Positions 16,020 through 26,770 of a stretch of 64,000 bases of DNA are shown here, one piece after another. Position 1 is the first letter of the stretch. The number at the start of each line of letters is the position of its first letter. Position numbers and translations under genes: made by a program. Origin of the DNA: an uncultured Planctomycetales bacterium (GTDB lineage: Bacteria; Omnitrophota; Gorgyraeia; Zapsychrales; JAHFFX01); NCBI GenBank assembly GCA_964612665.1, contig CAZTCI010000004.1, forward strand, positions 270,376-334,375, read 5' to 3'. The notes below the pieces were generated by a model. It did no database searches. It was not told the DNA's origin and saw only the letters and a program-made list of their open reading frames with translations.

Positions 16020-16970
16020 TTGACTATGACCAATGAAGAAAGAATCAAAATATTTAAACGTTCACTCGCCCGCCGGGGTTTATATACTTCATCGTGGGTA
16101 CTAGACCGTTTGCCGTACGGCGCAATGCGTACTTTTTCTAATATTCTGCTCAACATAGGATTTCGTTTCACAATTAAACAAAAGCGACTCGCTCAAGAAA
16201 GTCTCCACATCGCTTTTGGGCAGGAGAAGTCCCCGAAAGAAATCGACGAAATTATCCGCCGTTGTTTTGATAATCTGGGCCGCGGCATGATAGAGCTTCT
16301 TTATTTTATGTCCCGGCCGAAGCTTGTGGCGCAAAAGGTTTCTTTTGAAGGCCGCCATCATTTGGACGCCGCCATTAAAAAAGGAAATGGGGTGATCGCT
16401 GTCACCGCGCATTTCGGTAATTTTCCTTTAATGATGCTTGTCTGTGCGCGGGAAGGTTATAAAACTAACGCCATTATTCGTCCGACGAGAGATCAGGACT
16501 TGGAAAAATTTTTGCTTCAAAAAAGAACAGTAGCCGGATTAAAAACCATTTATGCTATTCCCCGTAAACAATGCGTTGCTCAATCCTTGAAAGTTTTGCG
16601 CAACAAAGAACTTCTTTTTATTCCTTTGGATCAAAACTTCGGCAGTGACGGTGGCGTTTTTGTAGATTTTTTTGGTCAGCAGGCCGCGACCGCGACCGGT
16701 CCAATTGTCATGGCTCGACGGACTCAGTCGGTTATTTTACCAATGTTTATTATCCGTGATAAAGACGATCATCACACAATTATCATTGAGCCGCCTTTTG
16801 AAATTGAGGAAAAGTCTTCAGAAGACGAAACTATTCAATTTAATATTGCTAAAATTACCAAGCTAATCGAAAATTATATCCGCCGTCATCCGCACGAATG
16901 GGGATGGATGCATCGTCGCTGGAAAAGCCGCCCGGCCGGAGACACCCAAACTCAAATCGTCCATGCCTAA
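16020..16970 (+). CDS. Lipid A biosynthesis lauroyl/myristoyl acyltransferase (LpxL/HtrB family)
   Basis: Family length about 310 aa. C-terminal HPHEWGWMHRRWK resembles the LpxL PEQYLWxHRRFK motif. Has the acyltransferase HX4D context. Confidence 0.65.
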   Translation: MTMTNEERIKIFKRSLARRGLYTSSWVLDRLPYGAMRTFSNILLNIGFRFTIKQKRLAQESLHIAFGQEKSPKEIDEIIRRCFDNLGRGMIELLYFMSRPKLVAQKVSFEGRHHLDAAIKKGNGVIAVTAHFGNFPLMMLVCAREGYKTNAIIRPTRDQDLEKFLLQKRTVAGLKTIYAIPRKQCVAQSLKVLRNKELLFIPLDQNFGSDGGVFVDFFGQQAATATGPIVMARRTQSVILPMFIIRDKDDHHTIIIEPPFEIEEKSSEDETIQFNIAKITKLIENYIRRHPHEWGWMHRRWKSRPAGDTQTQIVHA

Positions 16971-17130
16971 AAAATTAATTTTATTTATCACGGGAACATT
17001 TTTGCTCATCACAGGGATTACTCTTGTTTTAAAGGAATGGGAATATGTGGTTGGGTTTTTTAAAGGCGTCGGGGGGATGGCGCTGGCGGTTGTGGGGCTG
17101 GTTGTTTTGATGTTTATTAAAAGTGATTAA
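16963..17130 (+). CDS. Small hypothetical two-TM membrane protein (55 aa), not in the ORF track
   Basis: ATG overlaps the lpxL stop. Encodes MPKKLILFITGTFLLITGITLVLKEWEYVVGFFKGVGGMALAVVGLVVLMFIKSD. Speculative call. Confidence 0.3.
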   Translation: MPKKLILFITGTFLLITGITLVLKEWEYVVGFFKGVGGMALAVVGLVVLMFIKSD

Positions 17131-17225
17131 TCGTTGTTCGTCGTTCGTTTTTCGTGGGATTCGTATTTTAATTTTTCTAAAAACGTAAAGAACGAATTCC
17201 ACGAAAAACGAACGACGAACGACAA
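17131..17225. repeat. Long near-perfect hairpin (about 28-bp stem, core ttcgtcgttcgtttttcgtgg / ccacgaaaaacgaacgacgaa, about 24-nt AT loop)
   Basis: Read from sequence. The left arm (17137-17157) is the exact reverse complement of 17199-17219. Additional flanking pairs exist. A related hairpin lies at 25008-25048. Confidence 0.75.
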
Positions 17226-17236
17226 TAAAGTTACCT

Positions 17237-21008: not shown

Positions 21009-22859
21009 TTGGAAATGTCATTACATAATCAAACCATATCATCCCAATCCTCAAGCTTCCTGAAATCTTCTTTGTGTCAAATCCTCATTATCATCACCCT
21101 CACCTTCAGCGCTTATTCGTTTATGGTCAGCGATTCGTTTAAGACGATGGATGATTATTATTCTATTATTGACGATCCTGATATCAGAAGTTTTGATAAT
21201 TTAGAAAAGGTTTTTCACCGGGGATTTTTTCGTGATCAATCATATTATCGTCCGCTGGTGATCACGAGTTTTATGCTTGAGTATCATTGTTTCGGTTTGA
21301 ATCCTTTTTTTTATTACCTAACGAATATTTTTCTACATATCTCAAGCGCGGTCGTGGTTCTTTACATCGCGCGGATGCTTTTGAATAATTCTTGGCAGAG
21401 TTTTAATGCCGCGCTTTTGTTCGGCATTCATCCGGTTCAAACTGAAGCGGTCGCTAACATTGCCGGGCGGTCGATTCTTTTGTGCGGTCTTTTTTCTTTG
21501 TTTGCGTTTTGGTTTTTCTTACTTTTTTTAAAACAGCGTCGGAAGATTCTCTATTTAAGTTCTTTGGGATTTTTTATCCTGGCGCTTTTATCCAAGGAGG
21601 CGGCCGTGATGCTGCCGGTTCTGATCTTCAGCTATTTGTTAATTATTTCTTCAACACAACAAAAACGGAATCGAGTGTTTGAAGCCTGTCTGCCGCTCTG
21701 GCCGTTTGCCGTTGTTTTGGGCGGTTATTTTTTTGTCCGTCATCACTTGGGAATTACCCATCTTTTTTATTGGCCGTCGCTGTCGGATTGGACCTTGGGC
21801 GTGCTAACGTTTGCTCGAGGAGTCATAACCTACTTGCGGCTTTTTATTTTTCCCGTTGATCTTCACTTTGACCGTTCACGCGTTGTCTTCCAAAGTTTTT
21901 ATAATATTGAAATTGGGGGAACCTTGCTTTTTTGGCTGCTTATTTTTATTTTGATAAGGCGGAAAAAATTGTCCCGGGAGATTTTATTTTCATTGAGCTG
22001 GTTTTTTATCGGGCTCTTTCCTGTTTCGCAGATAATAAGCTCCATTGGCGTTCAACCCGGGTCCATTTCGCTGGCCGAACATTTTCTTTATTTACCGTCG
22101 GTGGGCATCTTTATTTTAATGAGTGTGGTTTTTAAAGATGTTGATGCGTCTTGTTTGCGAAGACAGGTGATCCCACGGATTTCTTTATGGATTGTTGCCA
22201 TAAGTTTCGGCCTGTTTTTATTTTTAACAACCGTTCAAAACAATATCGCGATGCGGGATGAGAAAACAATGGTCGCCAGATCACTTGCGTTTGATCCGAA
22301 TAACAGCCGTCTGCTTTATGCGTTAGGCATGCTTGAGGTGAAAGACGCCCATTTTAATAAGGCGCAGAATATTTTCGCTAAAATTTTAACCTTGGATCCG
22401 GACAACGTTCGGGCGCGCATCGCGTTGGGCAAGAGTCTTTGTGATCAAGGAAAGTATTGGGAAGGTTTGCAGGAATATGACAAAGTTGGGCCAACGGATC
22501 CGCATTTACAAAAATTGTTGGATGATAACCGCTCGCGGACTTACGCGCTTTTAATTAAAAGATATGAAGACATCGTGAAGAACGATCCGCAAAATGCAAA
22601 AGCATATTACAGTTTGGGCGTCATCTATACTAAAATGAATCAATTGCCAGAGGCGATCGCTTATTATGAGAAGGCGGCCAATATCGACGCGCATTTCACA
22701 AACGCTTTATTTAATTTAGCTTCAACCTTGGAAGGCGTTGGCCGGCGGGAAGAGGCTAAGGTTTATTATGAACAGATTATGAATCAGCCTGACGTTGATC
22801 AATTTCAGAAGAATTATGCGACCGCTCATTTGCAAGCGTTAAACAAGCAAGGCCAGTAA
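21009..22859 (+). CDS. PMT/ArnT-like (TMTC-type) polytopic membrane glycosyltransferase with C-terminal TPR repeats
   Basis: About 11 N-terminal TM helices, then at least 4 TPR repeats in the last 200 aa (YALGMLEVKDAHFNKAQNIFAKILTLDPDN ..., AYYSLGVIYTKMNQLPEAIAYYEKA). This is the domain architecture of PMT_2/TMTC-like protein O-glycosyltransferases. Confidence 0.5.
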   Translation: MEMSLHNQTISSQSSSFLKSSLCQILIIITLTFSAYSFMVSDSFKTMDDYYSIIDDPDIRSFDNLEKVFHRGFFRDQSYYRPLVITSFMLEYHCFGLNPFFYYLTNIFLHISSAVVVLYIARMLLNNSWQSFNAALLFGIHPVQTEAVANIAGRSILLCGLFSLFAFWFFLLFLKQRRKILYLSSLGFFILALLSKEAAVMLPVLIFSYLLIISSTQQKRNRVFEACLPLWPFAVVLGGYFFVRHHLGITHLFYWPSLSDWTLGVLTFARGVITYLRLFIFPVDLHFDRSRVVFQSFYNIEIGGTLLFWLLIFILIRRKKLSREILFSLSWFFIGLFPVSQIISSIGVQPGSISLAEHFLYLPSVGIFILMSVVFKDVDASCLRRQVIPRISLWIVAISFGLFLFLTTVQNNIAMRDEKTMVARSLAFDPNNSRLLYALGMLEVKDAHFNKAQNIFAKILTLDPDNVRARIALGKSLCDQGKYWEGLQEYDKVGPTDPHLQKLLDDNRSRTYALLIKRYEDIVKNDPQNAKAYYSLGVIYTKMNQLPEAIAYYEKAANIDAHFTNALFNLASTLEGVGRREEAKVYYEQIMNQPDVDQFQKNYATAHLQALNKQGQ

Positions 22860-22959: not shown

Positions 22960-24210
22960 ATGCCACGCTTTCTTGAAAGTTTCAAAAATAAAGACTTCAG
23001 CTGTCTATGGCTCGCGCAAATCATTTCGCAGTTCGGCGACCGTATAAACCAAATGGCTTTAATTGGTCTGATTGCCAGCCGCACGCCCGGATCTGCTTTT
23101 GATTTAGCTAAGGTGATGAGCTTTACAATTATTCCGGTTTTTGTCATCGGGCCGATCGCCGGAGTTTATGTGGACCGGTGGGACAGGCGGCGGACGCTTT
23201 TTGTCTGTGATTTTTTACGCGGGATTTTGATATTGCTAATCCCCTTTGTTTTTATTCCCAAGAATTCCATGATCTTGATTTATCTCGCTGTGTTTCTGGC
23301 CTTTTGTTTAAGCCGTTTTTATGTCCCGGCTAAAATGTCGATCATTCCTGATATCGTTAAAGAAGAAGATCTTTTAATCGCGAATTCGCTTGTGTCAGTG
23401 ACCGGGATGATTGCTTTTGTCTTGGGATGCGCTTTAGGCGGTTATATCGTCGAGAAATTTGGGGCGCGAGGTGGATTTATTTGGGATGCGGTCACGTTTT
23501 TTATCTCAGGATTGCTTGTTTTTAATATCCGGCCGAAGTTTTCATGGCGGTTTAACCGGAAAAGATTTTTAGTCACCGGGCGGGTTCTTATAAAAAAGAT
23601 CCGTCATTCGGTCATTGGTGAAGTGAAAGAAGGCATCAGTTATTTAGGTAAGCATCCGGATATTCGGTTTATTATGAATATGCTTTTTATTTTGTTTGCC
23701 GCGGCCGGCGCTGTTTATGTTGTGATTATTGTTTTTGTGCAAGAAGCTTTTAATAGTGTCGTGCGGGATTTAGCGGTGTTGGCTGTTGTTCTTGGACTTG
23801 GATTGTTTAGCGGCGCGATTTTATATGGGCGTTTCGGTGAGAAGGCTTCAAAATTTCAGACGATCTTTGTGTGTTTGGTTATCGGCGGGCTTATGCTGGC
23901 TAGTTTTGCCGTGATCATTCAGCACACGCACAATATTCTGACGGCGATTGGAATGTCGTTTTTATTAGGATTGATCGTCGGGCCGATTGTGATTGCGGCG
24001 AACACGGTCATTCATGAAGTCAGTCATAGCGAAATGCGCGGAAAAGTTTTTAGCAGTATCGAAATCGTCATCCATTTCGCGTTTTTGGTCGCGATGCTTT
24101 TAAGTTCGTTTCTTTCTAAATTTGTTCCGCCCTTCACAATCTTGGTTAGCGTTGGGGGAATCTTTGCGGTCGTGGGATTGGTGGGATTGGTGCGGTTTAA
24201 TTCGAAATAA
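22960..24210 (+). CDS. MFS transporter
   Basis: 12 TM-like segments. MFS motif region GPIAGVYVDRWDRRRTLF. Confidence 0.75.
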   Translation: MPRFLESFKNKDFSCLWLAQIISQFGDRINQMALIGLIASRTPGSAFDLAKVMSFTIIPVFVIGPIAGVYVDRWDRRRTLFVCDFLRGILILLIPFVFIPKNSMILIYLAVFLAFCLSRFYVPAKMSIIPDIVKEEDLLIANSLVSVTGMIAFVLGCALGGYIVEKFGARGGFIWDAVTFFISGLLVFNIRPKFSWRFNRKRFLVTGRVLIKKIRHSVIGEVKEGISYLGKHPDIRFIMNMLFILFAAAGAVYVVIIVFVQEAFNSVVRDLAVLAVVLGLGLFSGAILYGRFGEKASKFQTIFVCLVIGGLMLASFAVIIQHTHNILTAIGMSFLLGLIVGPIVIAANTVIHEVSHSEMRGKVFSSIEIVIHFAFLVAMLLSSFLSKFVPPFTILVSVGGIFAVVGLVGLVRFNSK

Positions 24211-24324
24211 AGTATATGATGGATATACCATAAGCAAATTTCCCGACGAAAGGCCAATGTTTGACAATCTTACTCATGAATGTTATTCTTCAGTTATTTC
24301 AACTTGAAACGAGAGGAACTAATT

Positions 24325-24606
24325 ATGATTAAAATACATGACGATGTGACCATGGTTGGCATTTCTGAATTACAAATGCATCCTGAAAAAATTCTTCAAG
24401 AAATCAAGAAGCATAAAGTTATTATCGGAAAACGTAATAAACCGGTTGCTGTTTTGTTGAATATGAAAAAGTATCGTCAAATGGAGACTACCTTGGACCT
24501 CTTGGAGAATTTTGCCCTAGGTTATTTGGCGAAGGACAGAGAAGTCCGTACGAAGAAATCTTATGTTGACATCAAAGACGCTTTGAAAAAAATTAAACAT
24601 CAGTAA
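24325..24606 (+). CDS. Type II antitoxin, Phd/YefM family
   Basis: MIKIHDDVTMVGISELQMHPEKILQEI..KPVAVLLNMKKYRQMETTLDLLEN fits the Phd/YefM fold pattern. An ATG at 24325 with a GAGAGGA Shine-Dalgarno is preferred over the longer ORF-track start. Confidence 0.6.
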   Translation: MIKIHDDVTMVGISELQMHPEKILQEIKKHKVIIGKRNKPVAVLLNMKKYRQMETTLDLLENFALGYLAKDREVRTKKSYVDIKDALKKIKHQ

Positions 24607-24612
24607 CCATTC

Positions 24613-24915
24613 ATGTGGCAAATCAAAATAAACCCGCTAGTTCTTCTTGAAGATTTTAAAAATATCGATTTACCTCAACAAAGAAACATTCTTAGGACCA
24701 TCCACAAAAAATTATCTGTTAATCCTAAAGCTTATGGCAAGCCGCTGACCGGTGAATTTTCAGGTTACTGGCGTCTTCGTATTGGCGATTACAGAGTTGT
24801 TTACCGTATCCTCAATGACCAAGTTGTTGTGCTTGTTATTAAGGTTGGTATCCGCAAAGATGACAGAGTTTATCGGGAATTATTTTCTAGATTGCGTCGA
24901 TTGAGCCGTCCTTAA
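24613..24915 (+). CDS. Type II toxin, RelE/ParE family mRNA interferase
   Basis: WRLRIGDYRVVYRILNDQVVVLVIKVGIRKDDRVY is the RelE/ParE signature. Sits 6 nt downstream of the antitoxin. Confidence 0.7.
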   Translation: MWQIKINPLVLLEDFKNIDLPQQRNILRTIHKKLSVNPKAYGKPLTGEFSGYWRLRIGDYRVVYRILNDQVVVLVIKVGIRKDDRVYRELFSRLRRLSRP

Positions 24916-24936
24916 TCGTAGACTAAGGGACTCAAA

Positions 24937-25005
24937 ATGAATTTTGCAGTTTTAGCGTTGGGCGTTCTTTCAGTCGTGGGATTGGTGCGGTTTAATTCGA
25001 AGTAA
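24937..25005 (+). other. Chimeric junction scar: 22-codon mini-ORF fusing the purN 5' end (MNFAVLA) to the MFS gene 3' end (..SVVGLVRFNSK*)
   Basis: atgaattttgcagttttagcg mimics the purN start at 25064 (atgaatttcgcagtgctcgca). cagtcgtgggattggtgcggtttaattcgaagtaa duplicates the MFS 3' end at 24168-24210, minus one 9-bp tandem unit. Confidence 0.6.
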
Positions 25006-25007
25006 TT

Positions 25008-25048
25008 TCGTCGTTCGTGCTTCGTCGAAAAACGAACAACGAACGACG
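25008..25048. repeat. Hairpin of the cgtcgttcgt family (ttcgtcgttcgtgcttcg-tcgaaaaa-cgaacaacgaacgacg), between the junction scar and purN
   Basis: Imperfect 16-bp stem. Shares the 12-mer ttcgtcgttcgt with the long hairpin at 17131-17225. Confidence 0.55.
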
Positions 25049-25063
25049 CTAAAGGAGAACCCA

Positions 25064-25666
25064 ATGAATTTCGCAGTGCTCGCATCCGGATATGGATCGA
25101 ACCTTCAGGCCATTATTACGGCAGTTAAACAAAAGAAGATTAGAGCGGATTTAAAATTAGTTTTATCAGATAAGAAGGAAGCGGTCGCGTTAGAACGGGC
25201 CCGCAAAGTCAAAATCAGAGCGGTTTTTGTGGATCCGTCGATGTTTACGGATCGGGAAAGTTTTGACCGCGAACTCATTCAACATTTGACGGCTGAGAAG
25301 ATTGATTTTATTGTGCTCGCCGGATTTATGCGGATTTTGAGCGCGCATTTTATCCAGCAATATCCTGATAAAATTCTCAATATCCATCCGTCACTGCTTC
25401 CAGCTTTTAAAGGCGCGAAAGCGATCAAAGACGCTTATGAATCTGGAGGAAGGCTGACCGGTGTAACGGTCCATTTTGTCGAGGAGAAAGTGGATGGCGG
25501 GCCCATTATTATTCAGGAAGCGGTTGCGATTAAACCGAATGATACGTTATTGTCATTAGAAGCACGGATTCACAATGTAGAGCACAGACTTTACCCGAAG
25601 GCGATCGATGCGTTTGCGCGGGGGAAGTTGAAGATTGTTGGGAGGAAAGTGATCGTTGGTTCGTAG
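25064..25666 (+). CDS. purN: Phosphoribosylglycinamide formyltransferase
   Basis: NIHPSLLPAFKG and the folate-binding region. About 200 aa. Confidence 0.85.
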   Translation: MNFAVLASGYGSNLQAIITAVKQKKIRADLKLVLSDKKEAVALERARKVKIRAVFVDPSMFTDRESFDRELIQHLTAEKIDFIVLAGFMRILSAHFIQQYPDKILNIHPSLLPAFKGAKAIKDAYESGGRLTGVTVHFVEEKVDGGPIIIQEAVAIKPNDTLLSLEARIHNVEHRLYPKAIDAFARGKLKIVGRKVIVGS

Positions 25667-25774: not shown

Positions 25775-26770
25775 TTATTCCACCATCCGCTGAATTTGTT
25801 CCTTATCAAAAAGATATTCTTTCCCCGTCGCCAAATTATGCAGCCGCACACCGGCGAAATTGTTAATGACTTCCTGGGGGGGCGCAGACTGCGGCGCGGC
25901 AGGGACTTGAAAATGTTTAGGCGCGGCATTTTGAAAATTCTCCGGCTGATACCCTTTCACGGTGTCGTTGACAGTTTTGAGAATTTCGATTTCCGGATCG
26001 TCGGCAGGCTTAAAATCGCTTTGCTGGTATTTAAAGCGAATGCGGTTTAAAATTTGTTTCGTTAAGAATTCCATCCAGGTCACATCGTGATAATCCACAT
26101 GCTGGCCCAGTTTATCGCCAATCATTTTTTCTTCACCCGTAAATTCTGAAATGCTCCGCTGTGCTAATTCTTCAAGAGGAAACGCCCCCAGCGCCGAATA
26201 TTTGAAATCCTGAAAAGCCATATAATTCCGAACCACGACGCCGGTTTTAACATTTGCCACCACCAGCACGATAAAGTCCGGCGGCGCCTCGGCTGTTTTT
26301 TTGCCATACTTTTCGCCTAAATCCGTATAGGAACGGTACAGCGTCGTTGCGATATCATTTTGCTTTTTGCGAAAGCTTTCCGTATAAGTTGGATTGAGTC
26401 CTTTATCATCCAGGTATTTGGCTTCTTTACGGATGTCGTATTCGATGTCGAACAAAGTTTTATCCGGGCGCCCGTCTAAGTAACGGATATTTAAACTGTC
26501 CGTCGGCGTACTGGAACGCCGCGGCCCGTCGGGCGTAGATTTATAATCCAGAATCGGTTCTTCAACCGGTAAATAAATCCACAACGTATGCCCGACAACT
26601 CGAATTAAAGGATTGAGCTTGTATTCTTCCCGAATGGTTTTAAGAAACTTTTTGTTGGCTTCGTTAAGCGTTTGGACAGGTGGAGTTGGTTTGACACAGC
26701 CCGCGTTCCCAAAAGAAAGGAAGGCGAGAAGGAGAATGATTCTTAAAGAAATTTTTTGGGTGAGTTCCAT
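25775..26770 (-). CDS. Hypothetical lipoprotein co-transcribed downstream of ftsH
   Basis: Signal peptide with Cys (FGNAGC). Its start codon overlaps the ftsH stop in an ATGA arrangement. No family recognized. Confidence 0.4.
   Translation of the reverse strand: MELTQKISLRIILLLAFLSFGNAGCVKPTPPVQTLNEANKKFLKTIREEYKLNPLIRVVGHTLWIYLPVEEPILDYKSTPDGPRRSSTPTDSLNIRYLDGRPDKTLFDIEYDIRKEAKYLDDKGLNPTYTESFRKKQNDIATTLYRSYTDLGEKYGKKTAEAPPDFIVLVVANVKTGVVVRNYMAFQDFKYSALGAFPLEELAQRSISEFTGEEKMIGDKLGQHVDYHDVTWMEFLTKQILNRIRFKYQQSDFKPADDPEIEILKTVNDTVKGYQPENFQNAAPKHFQVPAAPQSAPPQEVINNFAGVRLHNLATGKEYLFDKEQIQRMVE

Follow-up and report, generated by a model that had tools for sequence, protein, structure and literature searches.

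Introduction

Chromosomal cassettes of the type II toxin-antitoxin (TA) class are patchily distributed and spread by horizontal transfer. To our knowledge, most of them carry no mobility genes, and the footprint of an insertion is rarely preserved. Described modules such as RelBE and YefM-YoeB of Escherichia coli and RelJK (Rv3357/Rv3358) of Mycobacterium tuberculosis share a simple design, in which the antitoxin gene comes first behind its own promoter, the toxin gene follows 6 nucleotides (nt) downstream, and the proteins are about 90-100 amino acids (aa) long. A cassette of this design, with a predicted promoter, lies between the gene of an MFS transporter and purN in a 64-kb stretch of DNA (the window, to which coordinates refer) from an uncultured bacterium, a member of Candidatus Omnitrophota. 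All features of the locus are on the plus strand.

The locus preserves an insertion footprint in the form of a chimeric mini open reading frame (mini-ORF) behind the toxin gene. We will argue that the cassette was attached to a purN start before the present arrangement arose, that two alleles of a housekeeping junction were combined, and that recombination by the host over very short homology, or else an illegitimate joint, would have sufficed for this. The value of the case is that of a worked example from a poorly known, uncultured phylum.

Results and Discussion

The mini-ORF encodes MNFAVLALGVLSVVGLVRFNSK and consists of pieces of the two flanking genes. Its 3' part (24976-25005) matches the end of the MFS gene (24181-24210) at 29 of 30 positions, 26 of which form one exact run. 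This run has an E value of 1.4e-8 in a blastn comparison with the whole window, and the MFS-end match is the sole significant internal repeat of the region besides a hairpin discussed below. When gaps are allowed, the homology covers about 54 nt (24952-25005 against 24146-24210) and takes in an 11-mer that matches without a difference, TTAGCGTTGGG; for the 5' extension by itself the shuffle p is ~0.001. The initial annotation had put this copy at about 35 nt; its MFS origin holds, but the gapped length is the larger one. Compared with the native MFS end, called A, the scar copy A' is short of a single 9-nt GTGGGATTG unit and shows two gaps of 1 nt. The native gene has this unit twice in tandem (24173-24197, encoding VGLVGL), while the scar copy has it once. 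Homologues in other genomes also encode VGLVGL, which makes two units the ancestral state; the scar copy has lost one of them, probably by slippage.

The 5' part of the mini-ORF is a copy of the purN start. The first 14 nt together with the base before the ATG (24936-24950) match 25063-25077 at 14 of 15 positions. The similarity continues upstream through a Shine-Dalgarno (SD)-like stretch (CTAAGGGA against CTAAAGGAGA), such that 24923-24950 aligns with 25049-25077 with a score that none of 2000 shuffles reaches. This copy, called B' to distinguish it from the native B, starts shortly past the toxin gene. Its purN-start portion follows the toxin stop at a distance of 21 nt and is preceded by an SD-like stretch similar to the one of purN. 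A purN copy of 21 nt had been proposed originally. Over that length only 16 of 21 positions agree, with five differences that are all synonymous. Since the MFS-derived 11-mer extends over bases 16-21, a purN origin is secure for only about 15 nt, or about 28 nt if the SD region is counted. The relative L005 has a purN allele that reads GCAGTTTTAGC, and a six-base microhomology at the joint is possible.

These alignments, the shuffles and the blastn result bear out the original description of the mini-ORF as a fusion of purN start and MFS end. Judged from its sequence, we take the mini-ORF to be a recombination joint and not a gene: some 15 nt from the start of purN, together with the ribosome-binding region, have been joined to the terminal ~54 nt of the MFS gene. 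An SD-like AAGGGA stands ahead of it, and it could be translated into a 22-aa hydrophobic peptide. A small membrane protein or a third TA component was considered and rejected, as the mini-ORF is fully accounted for as a chimera of two genes and is absent from all relatives. In an in-frame protein alignment with the MFS tail the substitutions look conservative, yet the 11-mer that matches exactly does so in a different frame, and the hydrophobic likeness between the two is probably compositional.

The junction in related genomes provides the reference state. The order TPR-MFS-purN is kept in 11 distinct Omnitrophota relatives (listed are L004-L010, with L008 identical to L010 in sequence, L022, L023 and L025), in which the MFS protein is 55-71% identical at the aa level. 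Neither the cassette nor the mini-ORF is present in any of these 11, so that no relative has the mini-ORF without the TA genes. In 7 relatives the MFS stop codon abuts or overlaps the purN ATG, often as ATGA, and 3 have non-coding spacers of 148-286 nt (L007 1202-1448; L009 4594-4740; L023 4252-4537). The MFS-purN junction is thus a normally tight and often translationally coupled one, and the comparison of sequences identifies the cassette in it as an insertion, in agreement with what had been suggested at the outset. Tandem GAGAAGGTC-like repeats were observed in the L007 spacer. Insertion or decay may have occurred repeatedly at this junction.

In the scar, the purN start precedes the MFS end, while the native order in all relatives is MFS end and then purN start. 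Such a reversed order is the signature of a novel joint in a tandem arrangement. The locus can accordingly be read as two versions of the junction in tandem, the first consisting of A, the cassette and B', and the second of A', a hairpin-containing spacer and B. The interiors of these two units are unrelated, the cassette measuring 726 nt and the hairpin spacer 58 nt. The left intergenic region compares with the spacer at p ~0.05 and the stretch from the toxin end to B' at p ~0.6, and no homology of B' was found that continues beyond the SD into the spacer (p ~0.6). A single internal duplication is therefore insufficient, because it would have produced identical interiors.

A second indication comes from the distribution of differences between A and A'. 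The two are identical over 26 nt, while the adjoining ~24 nt hold three indels and several substitutions. If the seven differences over 54 nt were placed at random, the calculated chance that at most one of them falls in the last 30 nt is ~3%. The divergence outside the 26-nt core points to two different junction alleles and not to a fresh internal duplication, and it is what would be expected for alleles able to recombine only where they are identical. Furthermore, the position of B', 21 nt past the toxin stop and with its own SD-like stretch, means that the cassette was already joined to a purN start before the joint was formed. This implies that the scar records a secondary or inter-strain event. 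The junction duplicated by recombination in the initial annotation is in this sense real, but it does not represent the primary capture of the cassette.

We now consider how the joint could have been formed. In the account that we favor, a single exchange would have taken place between a cassette-bearing allele and a cassette-free, hairpin-bearing allele of a related strain. A segment reaching from a point 65 nt ahead of the MFS stop to the first ~15 nt of purN would have closed on itself through an illegitimate purN::MFS joint, and the resulting circle would then have integrated in the manner of Campbell, with the crossover in the 26-30-nt identical MFS 3' end. This scenario would account for all features of the locus, including the identical block, and we adopt it with moderate confidence. 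The sequence shows the gene identities, the insertion by comparison with relatives, both repeats and the reversed order of the joint; that two alleles were involved, that one was circular, where the crossover took place and which allele was resident is what we infer. A circular intermediate had already been mentioned when the locus was first described; it agrees with the topology, but the circle is hypothetical and a linear route yields the same product.

Several points weigh against this account. Neither a cassette-bearing donor nor a cassette-free sister strain was found in genome and metagenome collections: a search of 5.8 billion proteins gave an MFS homologue of 71% and a toxin of 73% identity as the nearest ones, the only closer hits being the same clone (100%). 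The two-allele origin is for this reason deduced from one genome. Next, the 5' part of A' has out-of-frame indels relative to A (-1, -1 and -9). As aligned, these would be impossible in a functional donor MFS gene, and they must then reflect later decay or an alignment that is partly spurious. In addition, a stretch of 26-30 nt comes close to the minimum length for RecA-dependent exchange. Finally, a circular intermediate would not have left any mark by which it could be told apart from linear routes.

The most serious alternative is a linear one, namely homology-facilitated illegitimate recombination. Here, one end of a fragment from a related strain would be anchored by homology, either in the MFS gene or in purN and downstream of it, and the other end would be attached by an illegitimate joint at the microhomology level, linking purN +14 to MFS -65. 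Either allele could be the incoming one, and a circle is not needed. As a matter of sequence logic, this gives exactly the observed order of A, cassette, B'::A', hairpin and B; moreover, the diverged copies suit DNA exchanged between strains, and no recombinase gene is present. The process is established in naturally transformable bacteria, where it was reportedly described by de Vries & Wackernagel 2002 and Prudhomme et al. 2002. The term itself is used in PMC8116780. The linear route leaves the perfect 26-nt MFS-end block beside 24 diverged nt unexplained, however, whereas a crossover within the block explains it. Moreover, natural competence is not known from Omnitrophota. We consider the linear route possible but rather unlikely.

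Another option is that the arrangement arose internally in two or more steps, by a ~140-nt tandem duplication of the native junction, giving a hairpin on either side of the purN-start::MFS-end joint, and the later, independent arrival of the cassette in place of the first spacer. In a variant of this, the cassette-bearing junction is duplicated and the second cassette copy is later replaced by the hairpin. A tandem duplication does give the same reversed joint by sequence logic, and a weak likeness of 24243-24262 to the end of the hairpin spacer (p ~0.05) could be a relic of the first spacer. This match is not significant, however, and two or three independent events would be needed within one 150-nt spot. 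In addition, the cassette occupies exactly the space between the MFS stop and the SD of B', with no remnant of a hairpin, and for the copies to diverge as they have, a useless remnant of 70 nt would have had to persist neutrally for a long time. These requirements make a stepwise origin doubtful.

We have also considered a miniature site-specific integrative element with its integrase acting in trans, in which the 30-nt A and A' would be the attachment (att) sites attL and attR at the MFS 3' end. Indeed, 30-nt direct repeats enclose a 795-nt unit and the left copy completes the MFS gene, as with islands integrated into the 3' ends of genes. However, there is no integrase in the cassette or within ~5 kb upstream and 6 kb downstream, the purN-start copy B' inside the unit is not predicted, and the homologous cassettes of L013 and L017, the two examined for this, have no flanking repeats. 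The homology of A and A' also runs on in degraded form for another 24 nt, which is gene-like and not what a core site would look like. Such an element is very improbable. Finally, chance resemblance or an assembly chimera of two co-occurring strains is hardly credible: imperfect repeats of 14-15 nt are common at chance level in the 5-kb region, but the E value of an exact repeat of 26 nt is 1e-8 in the window and B' stands exactly at an ATG with an SD (0/2000 shuffles reach its score). The joint sequence is also unique, so that it must exist in the reads, and three separate assemblies are 100% identical.

The last point derives from three independent Logan assemblies (SRR12313477, SRR12313478 and SRR12313480), which equal the window at 100% identity across the joint. 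As the joint sequence is unique and present in all three, it is not an assembly or graph artefact.

The identities of the four genes, RelE/ParE toxin and Phd antitoxin between an MFS gene and purN, were confirmed by profile searches. The toxin scores above the curated cutoffs of PF05016 (41.3 bits vs 23) and TIGR02385 RelE_StbE (39.2 bits vs 27.9), and so does the antitoxin for PF02604 (43.9 bits vs 29.8) and TIGR01552 (28.6 bits vs 20.8). The antitoxin gene is upstream and the toxin gene co-oriented with it, with a gap of 6 nt. The control region starts directly after the MFS stop with a short AT-rich inverted repeat, GTATAT-N5-ATATAC, and contains a promoter-like TTGACA (24261-24266) separated by 17 nt from TG-TATTCT (24284-24289), which is a 10/12 match with a TG extension, as well as the SD GAGAGGA. 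The GC content of the cassette is 0.35-0.38, compared to 0.42-0.46 in the flanks. From these features, the cassette appears to be a self-contained 0.7-kb type II module with a sigma-70-like predicted promoter of its own, and antitoxin and toxin are predicted to form one operon transcribed from that site.

Going by family membership alone, the toxin probably acts as a ribosome-dependent mRNA endonuclease, and the antitoxin would neutralize it and repress the cassette promoter. Of the five catalytic residues of E. coli RelE (K52, K54, R61, R81 and Y87), a phmmer alignment (4v7k, 4fxe) shows equivalents of R61, R81 and Y87, with K54 replaced by R and K52 opposite a gap. The toxin is in these two respects unlike E. 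coli RelE, as it has no counterpart of K52 and an arginine at the position of K54. A plasmid or phage source for the cassette was considered and rejected, since the RelE/ParE toxins found there are distant relatives, with 37-44% identity. The closest relatives of the toxin (60-73%) all come from Omnitrophota metagenomes, in which such homologues are abundant.

Four further sites with homologous cassettes were located, between purH and folC, upstream of a PolX-type polymerase gene, upstream of fabA and downstream of a PilZ gene. All four carry a promoter (TTGACA-N17-TATnCT), Phd and RelE, co-oriented with the neighboring genes and with matching promoter-to-stop boundaries, and at two of the four the toxin stop is 0-6 nt from the next start codon. 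The cassettes sit stop-to-start within strings of housekeeping genes (purH|folC, before polX, before fabA) without disrupting them. At none of the five cassette loci, the present one and the four others, is there a recombinase gene. Because the units share their boundaries and lack such a gene, their movement must rely on host recombination, and the cassette is a mobile unit dependent on it. Scar-like flanking repeats were sought at L013 and L017, where only chance-level repeats were seen; the scar is peculiar to the present locus. As a separate observation, AT-rich TATTCAATAT-like palindromes, possibly operators, lie ahead of the promoter ATTGACA-N17-TATnCT of the homologous cassettes.

A more far-reaching interpretation is that the scar is the footprint of a recombinase-less mode of TA spread, in which the promoter-to-stop unit and a few dozen bases of both neighbors are excised as a small circle that homes via 26-30 nt of identity. 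If true, this would be a general route, driven by host recombination, for the exchange of TA cassettes among Omnitrophota strains. We regard this interpretation as speculative and unlikely.

The hairpin that follows the scar (40 nt, -21 kcal/mol, z=-2.6) has one longer relative in the window, which substantiates the early notice of a hairpin family. This relative, at 17131-17227, is a near-perfect hairpin of 97 nt with a folding free energy (dG) of -57.5 kcal/mol (z=-10.8). The two have 12 nt of the left arm and 25 nt of the right arm in common, with outer arms TTCGTCGTTCGT ... CGAAAAACGAACGACGAACGAC..TAAAG, and both are located between a stop codon and the SD of the next gene, the 17.1-kb copy being between core genes. 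They look like a family of repetitive extragenic palindromic (REP)-like or miniature palindromic intergenic repeats, of which the 25-kb copy is internally shortened. The likeness to REP elements consists in an intergenic palindrome after a stop codon, and the family is known here from two copies only. Within the account favored above, the hairpin belongs to the cassette-free side of the joint and not to the cassette.

The attC site of an integron was tried as a reading of the hairpin and rejected. No RYYYAAC/GTTRRRY cores were seen by eye in 24990-25065, where no formal attC search was made, there is no intI among the neighboring genes, and the second hairpin copy lies between core genes. A relic of the hairpin spacer in the left intergenic region was likewise not accepted, the best local alignment there having p ~0.05. 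The segment 24235-24262, AAATTTCCCGACGAAAGGCCAATGTTTGAC, is loosely like the hairpin spacer without its stem plus the purN start (CGACG..AAAGG..CCAATG..TTT), a similarity that is not significant (p ~0.05).

Directly ahead of the 17-kb hairpin, a 55-aa hydrophobic ORF (16963-17130) ends in ...GMALAVVGLVVLMFIKSD. Its tail resembles the MFS tail, ...GGIFAVVGLVGLVRFNSK, with ~10 of 18 aa identical and p ~0.03 for the nt alignment, and there is further likeness in the ~20 nt that precede each hairpin. A stop-proximal coding tail might be part of the repeat unit, but the similarity may be compositional.

The coordinates of the features are collected in Table 1. The C-terminus of the MFS protein, ...IFAVVGLVGLVRFNSK, agrees with the family consensus, with homologue C-termini such as ...FSVVGLVGLVRLRFKQKG, and purN retains its own SD; purN is presumably transcribed by read-through. 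The gene order in the neighborhood is TPR, MFS, TA, purN, a 331-aa protein, FtsH, enolase and DivIC. The gene of the 331-aa protein (25775-26770, minus strand) has no Pfam match and a lipoprotein-like N-terminus in its product, and it is kept beside ftsH in the relatives L006, L007, L009 and L025 (29-39% aa identity). No known RNA families were found across 24000-25300.

Table 1. Positions of the features discussed (window coordinates; homologous cassettes are numbered within the sequences named)
Feature	Position	Strand	Remarks
TPR / glycosyltransferase-like gene	21009-22859	+	
MFS (DHA3-like) transporter gene, intact	22960-24210	+	Pfam MFS_1 E=5e-38
Repeat A, native MFS gene 3' end	24146-24210	+	identical core 24181-24206
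Cassette control region, intergenic, 114 nt	24211-24324	+	
Phd/YefM-family antitoxin, 93 aa	24325-24606	+	PF02604 E=2e-11; TIGR01552
RelE/ParE-superfamily toxin, RelE-like, 100 aa	24613-24915	+	PF05016 E=2e-10; TIGR02385 RelE_StbE
Repeat B', copy of purN ribosome-binding region and first 14 nt	24923-24950	+	secure core 24936-24950
Chimeric mini-ORF, 22 codons, purN start::MFS end	24937-25005	+	joint ~24950/24952
Repeat A', diverged copy of last 65 nt of MFS gene	24952-25005	+	core 24976-25005
Imperfect hairpin, no U-tract	25009-25048	+	relative at 17131-17227
Repeat B, native purN SD and start codon region	25049-25077	+	SD AAGGAG, 25052-25057
purN (phosphoribosylglycinamide formyltransferase), intact	25064-25666	+	TIGR00639 equivalog, 240 bits vs cutoff 150
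Homologous Phd-RelE cassettes	L013 3522-4298; L017 312-1035; L018 3560-4411; L019 3611-4653		

Conclusion

The locus is an ordinary chromosomal type II TA module with an informative but mechanistically ambiguous scar, and the event that left it is of a familiar type. Neither a novel mechanism nor a novel kind of element is indicated by the evidence. Nothing directly comparable was found in the literature on TA insertion scars. The systems compared below share single features with the locus.

The TA cassettes of Vibrio chromosomal integrons resemble it in that a small promoter-plus-TA unit is involved, a circular intermediate is invoked and an imperfect palindrome lies downstream. Unlike in those cassettes, the palindrome is here on the cassette-free side and recurs at 17.1 kb. 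With illegitimate recombination in Acinetobacter baylyi and Streptococcus pneumoniae the likeness is that one end is homologous and the other joined with little or no homology, that foreign DNA enters without a dedicated recombinase, and that short chimeric joints remain. The classic cases in these two species usually delete recipient DNA, whereas here 65 nt are duplicated. Campbell-type integration of circular DNA by a single crossover, which amounts to a tandem-duplication joint and on which the favored account is modeled, has in common with the locus that direct repeats, here A and A', bracket the unit and that a novel joint in reversed order lies inside. It differs in that the homology is here just 26-30 nt, that the circle is hypothetical and that the interiors of the two units differ, so that the result is no simple duplication.

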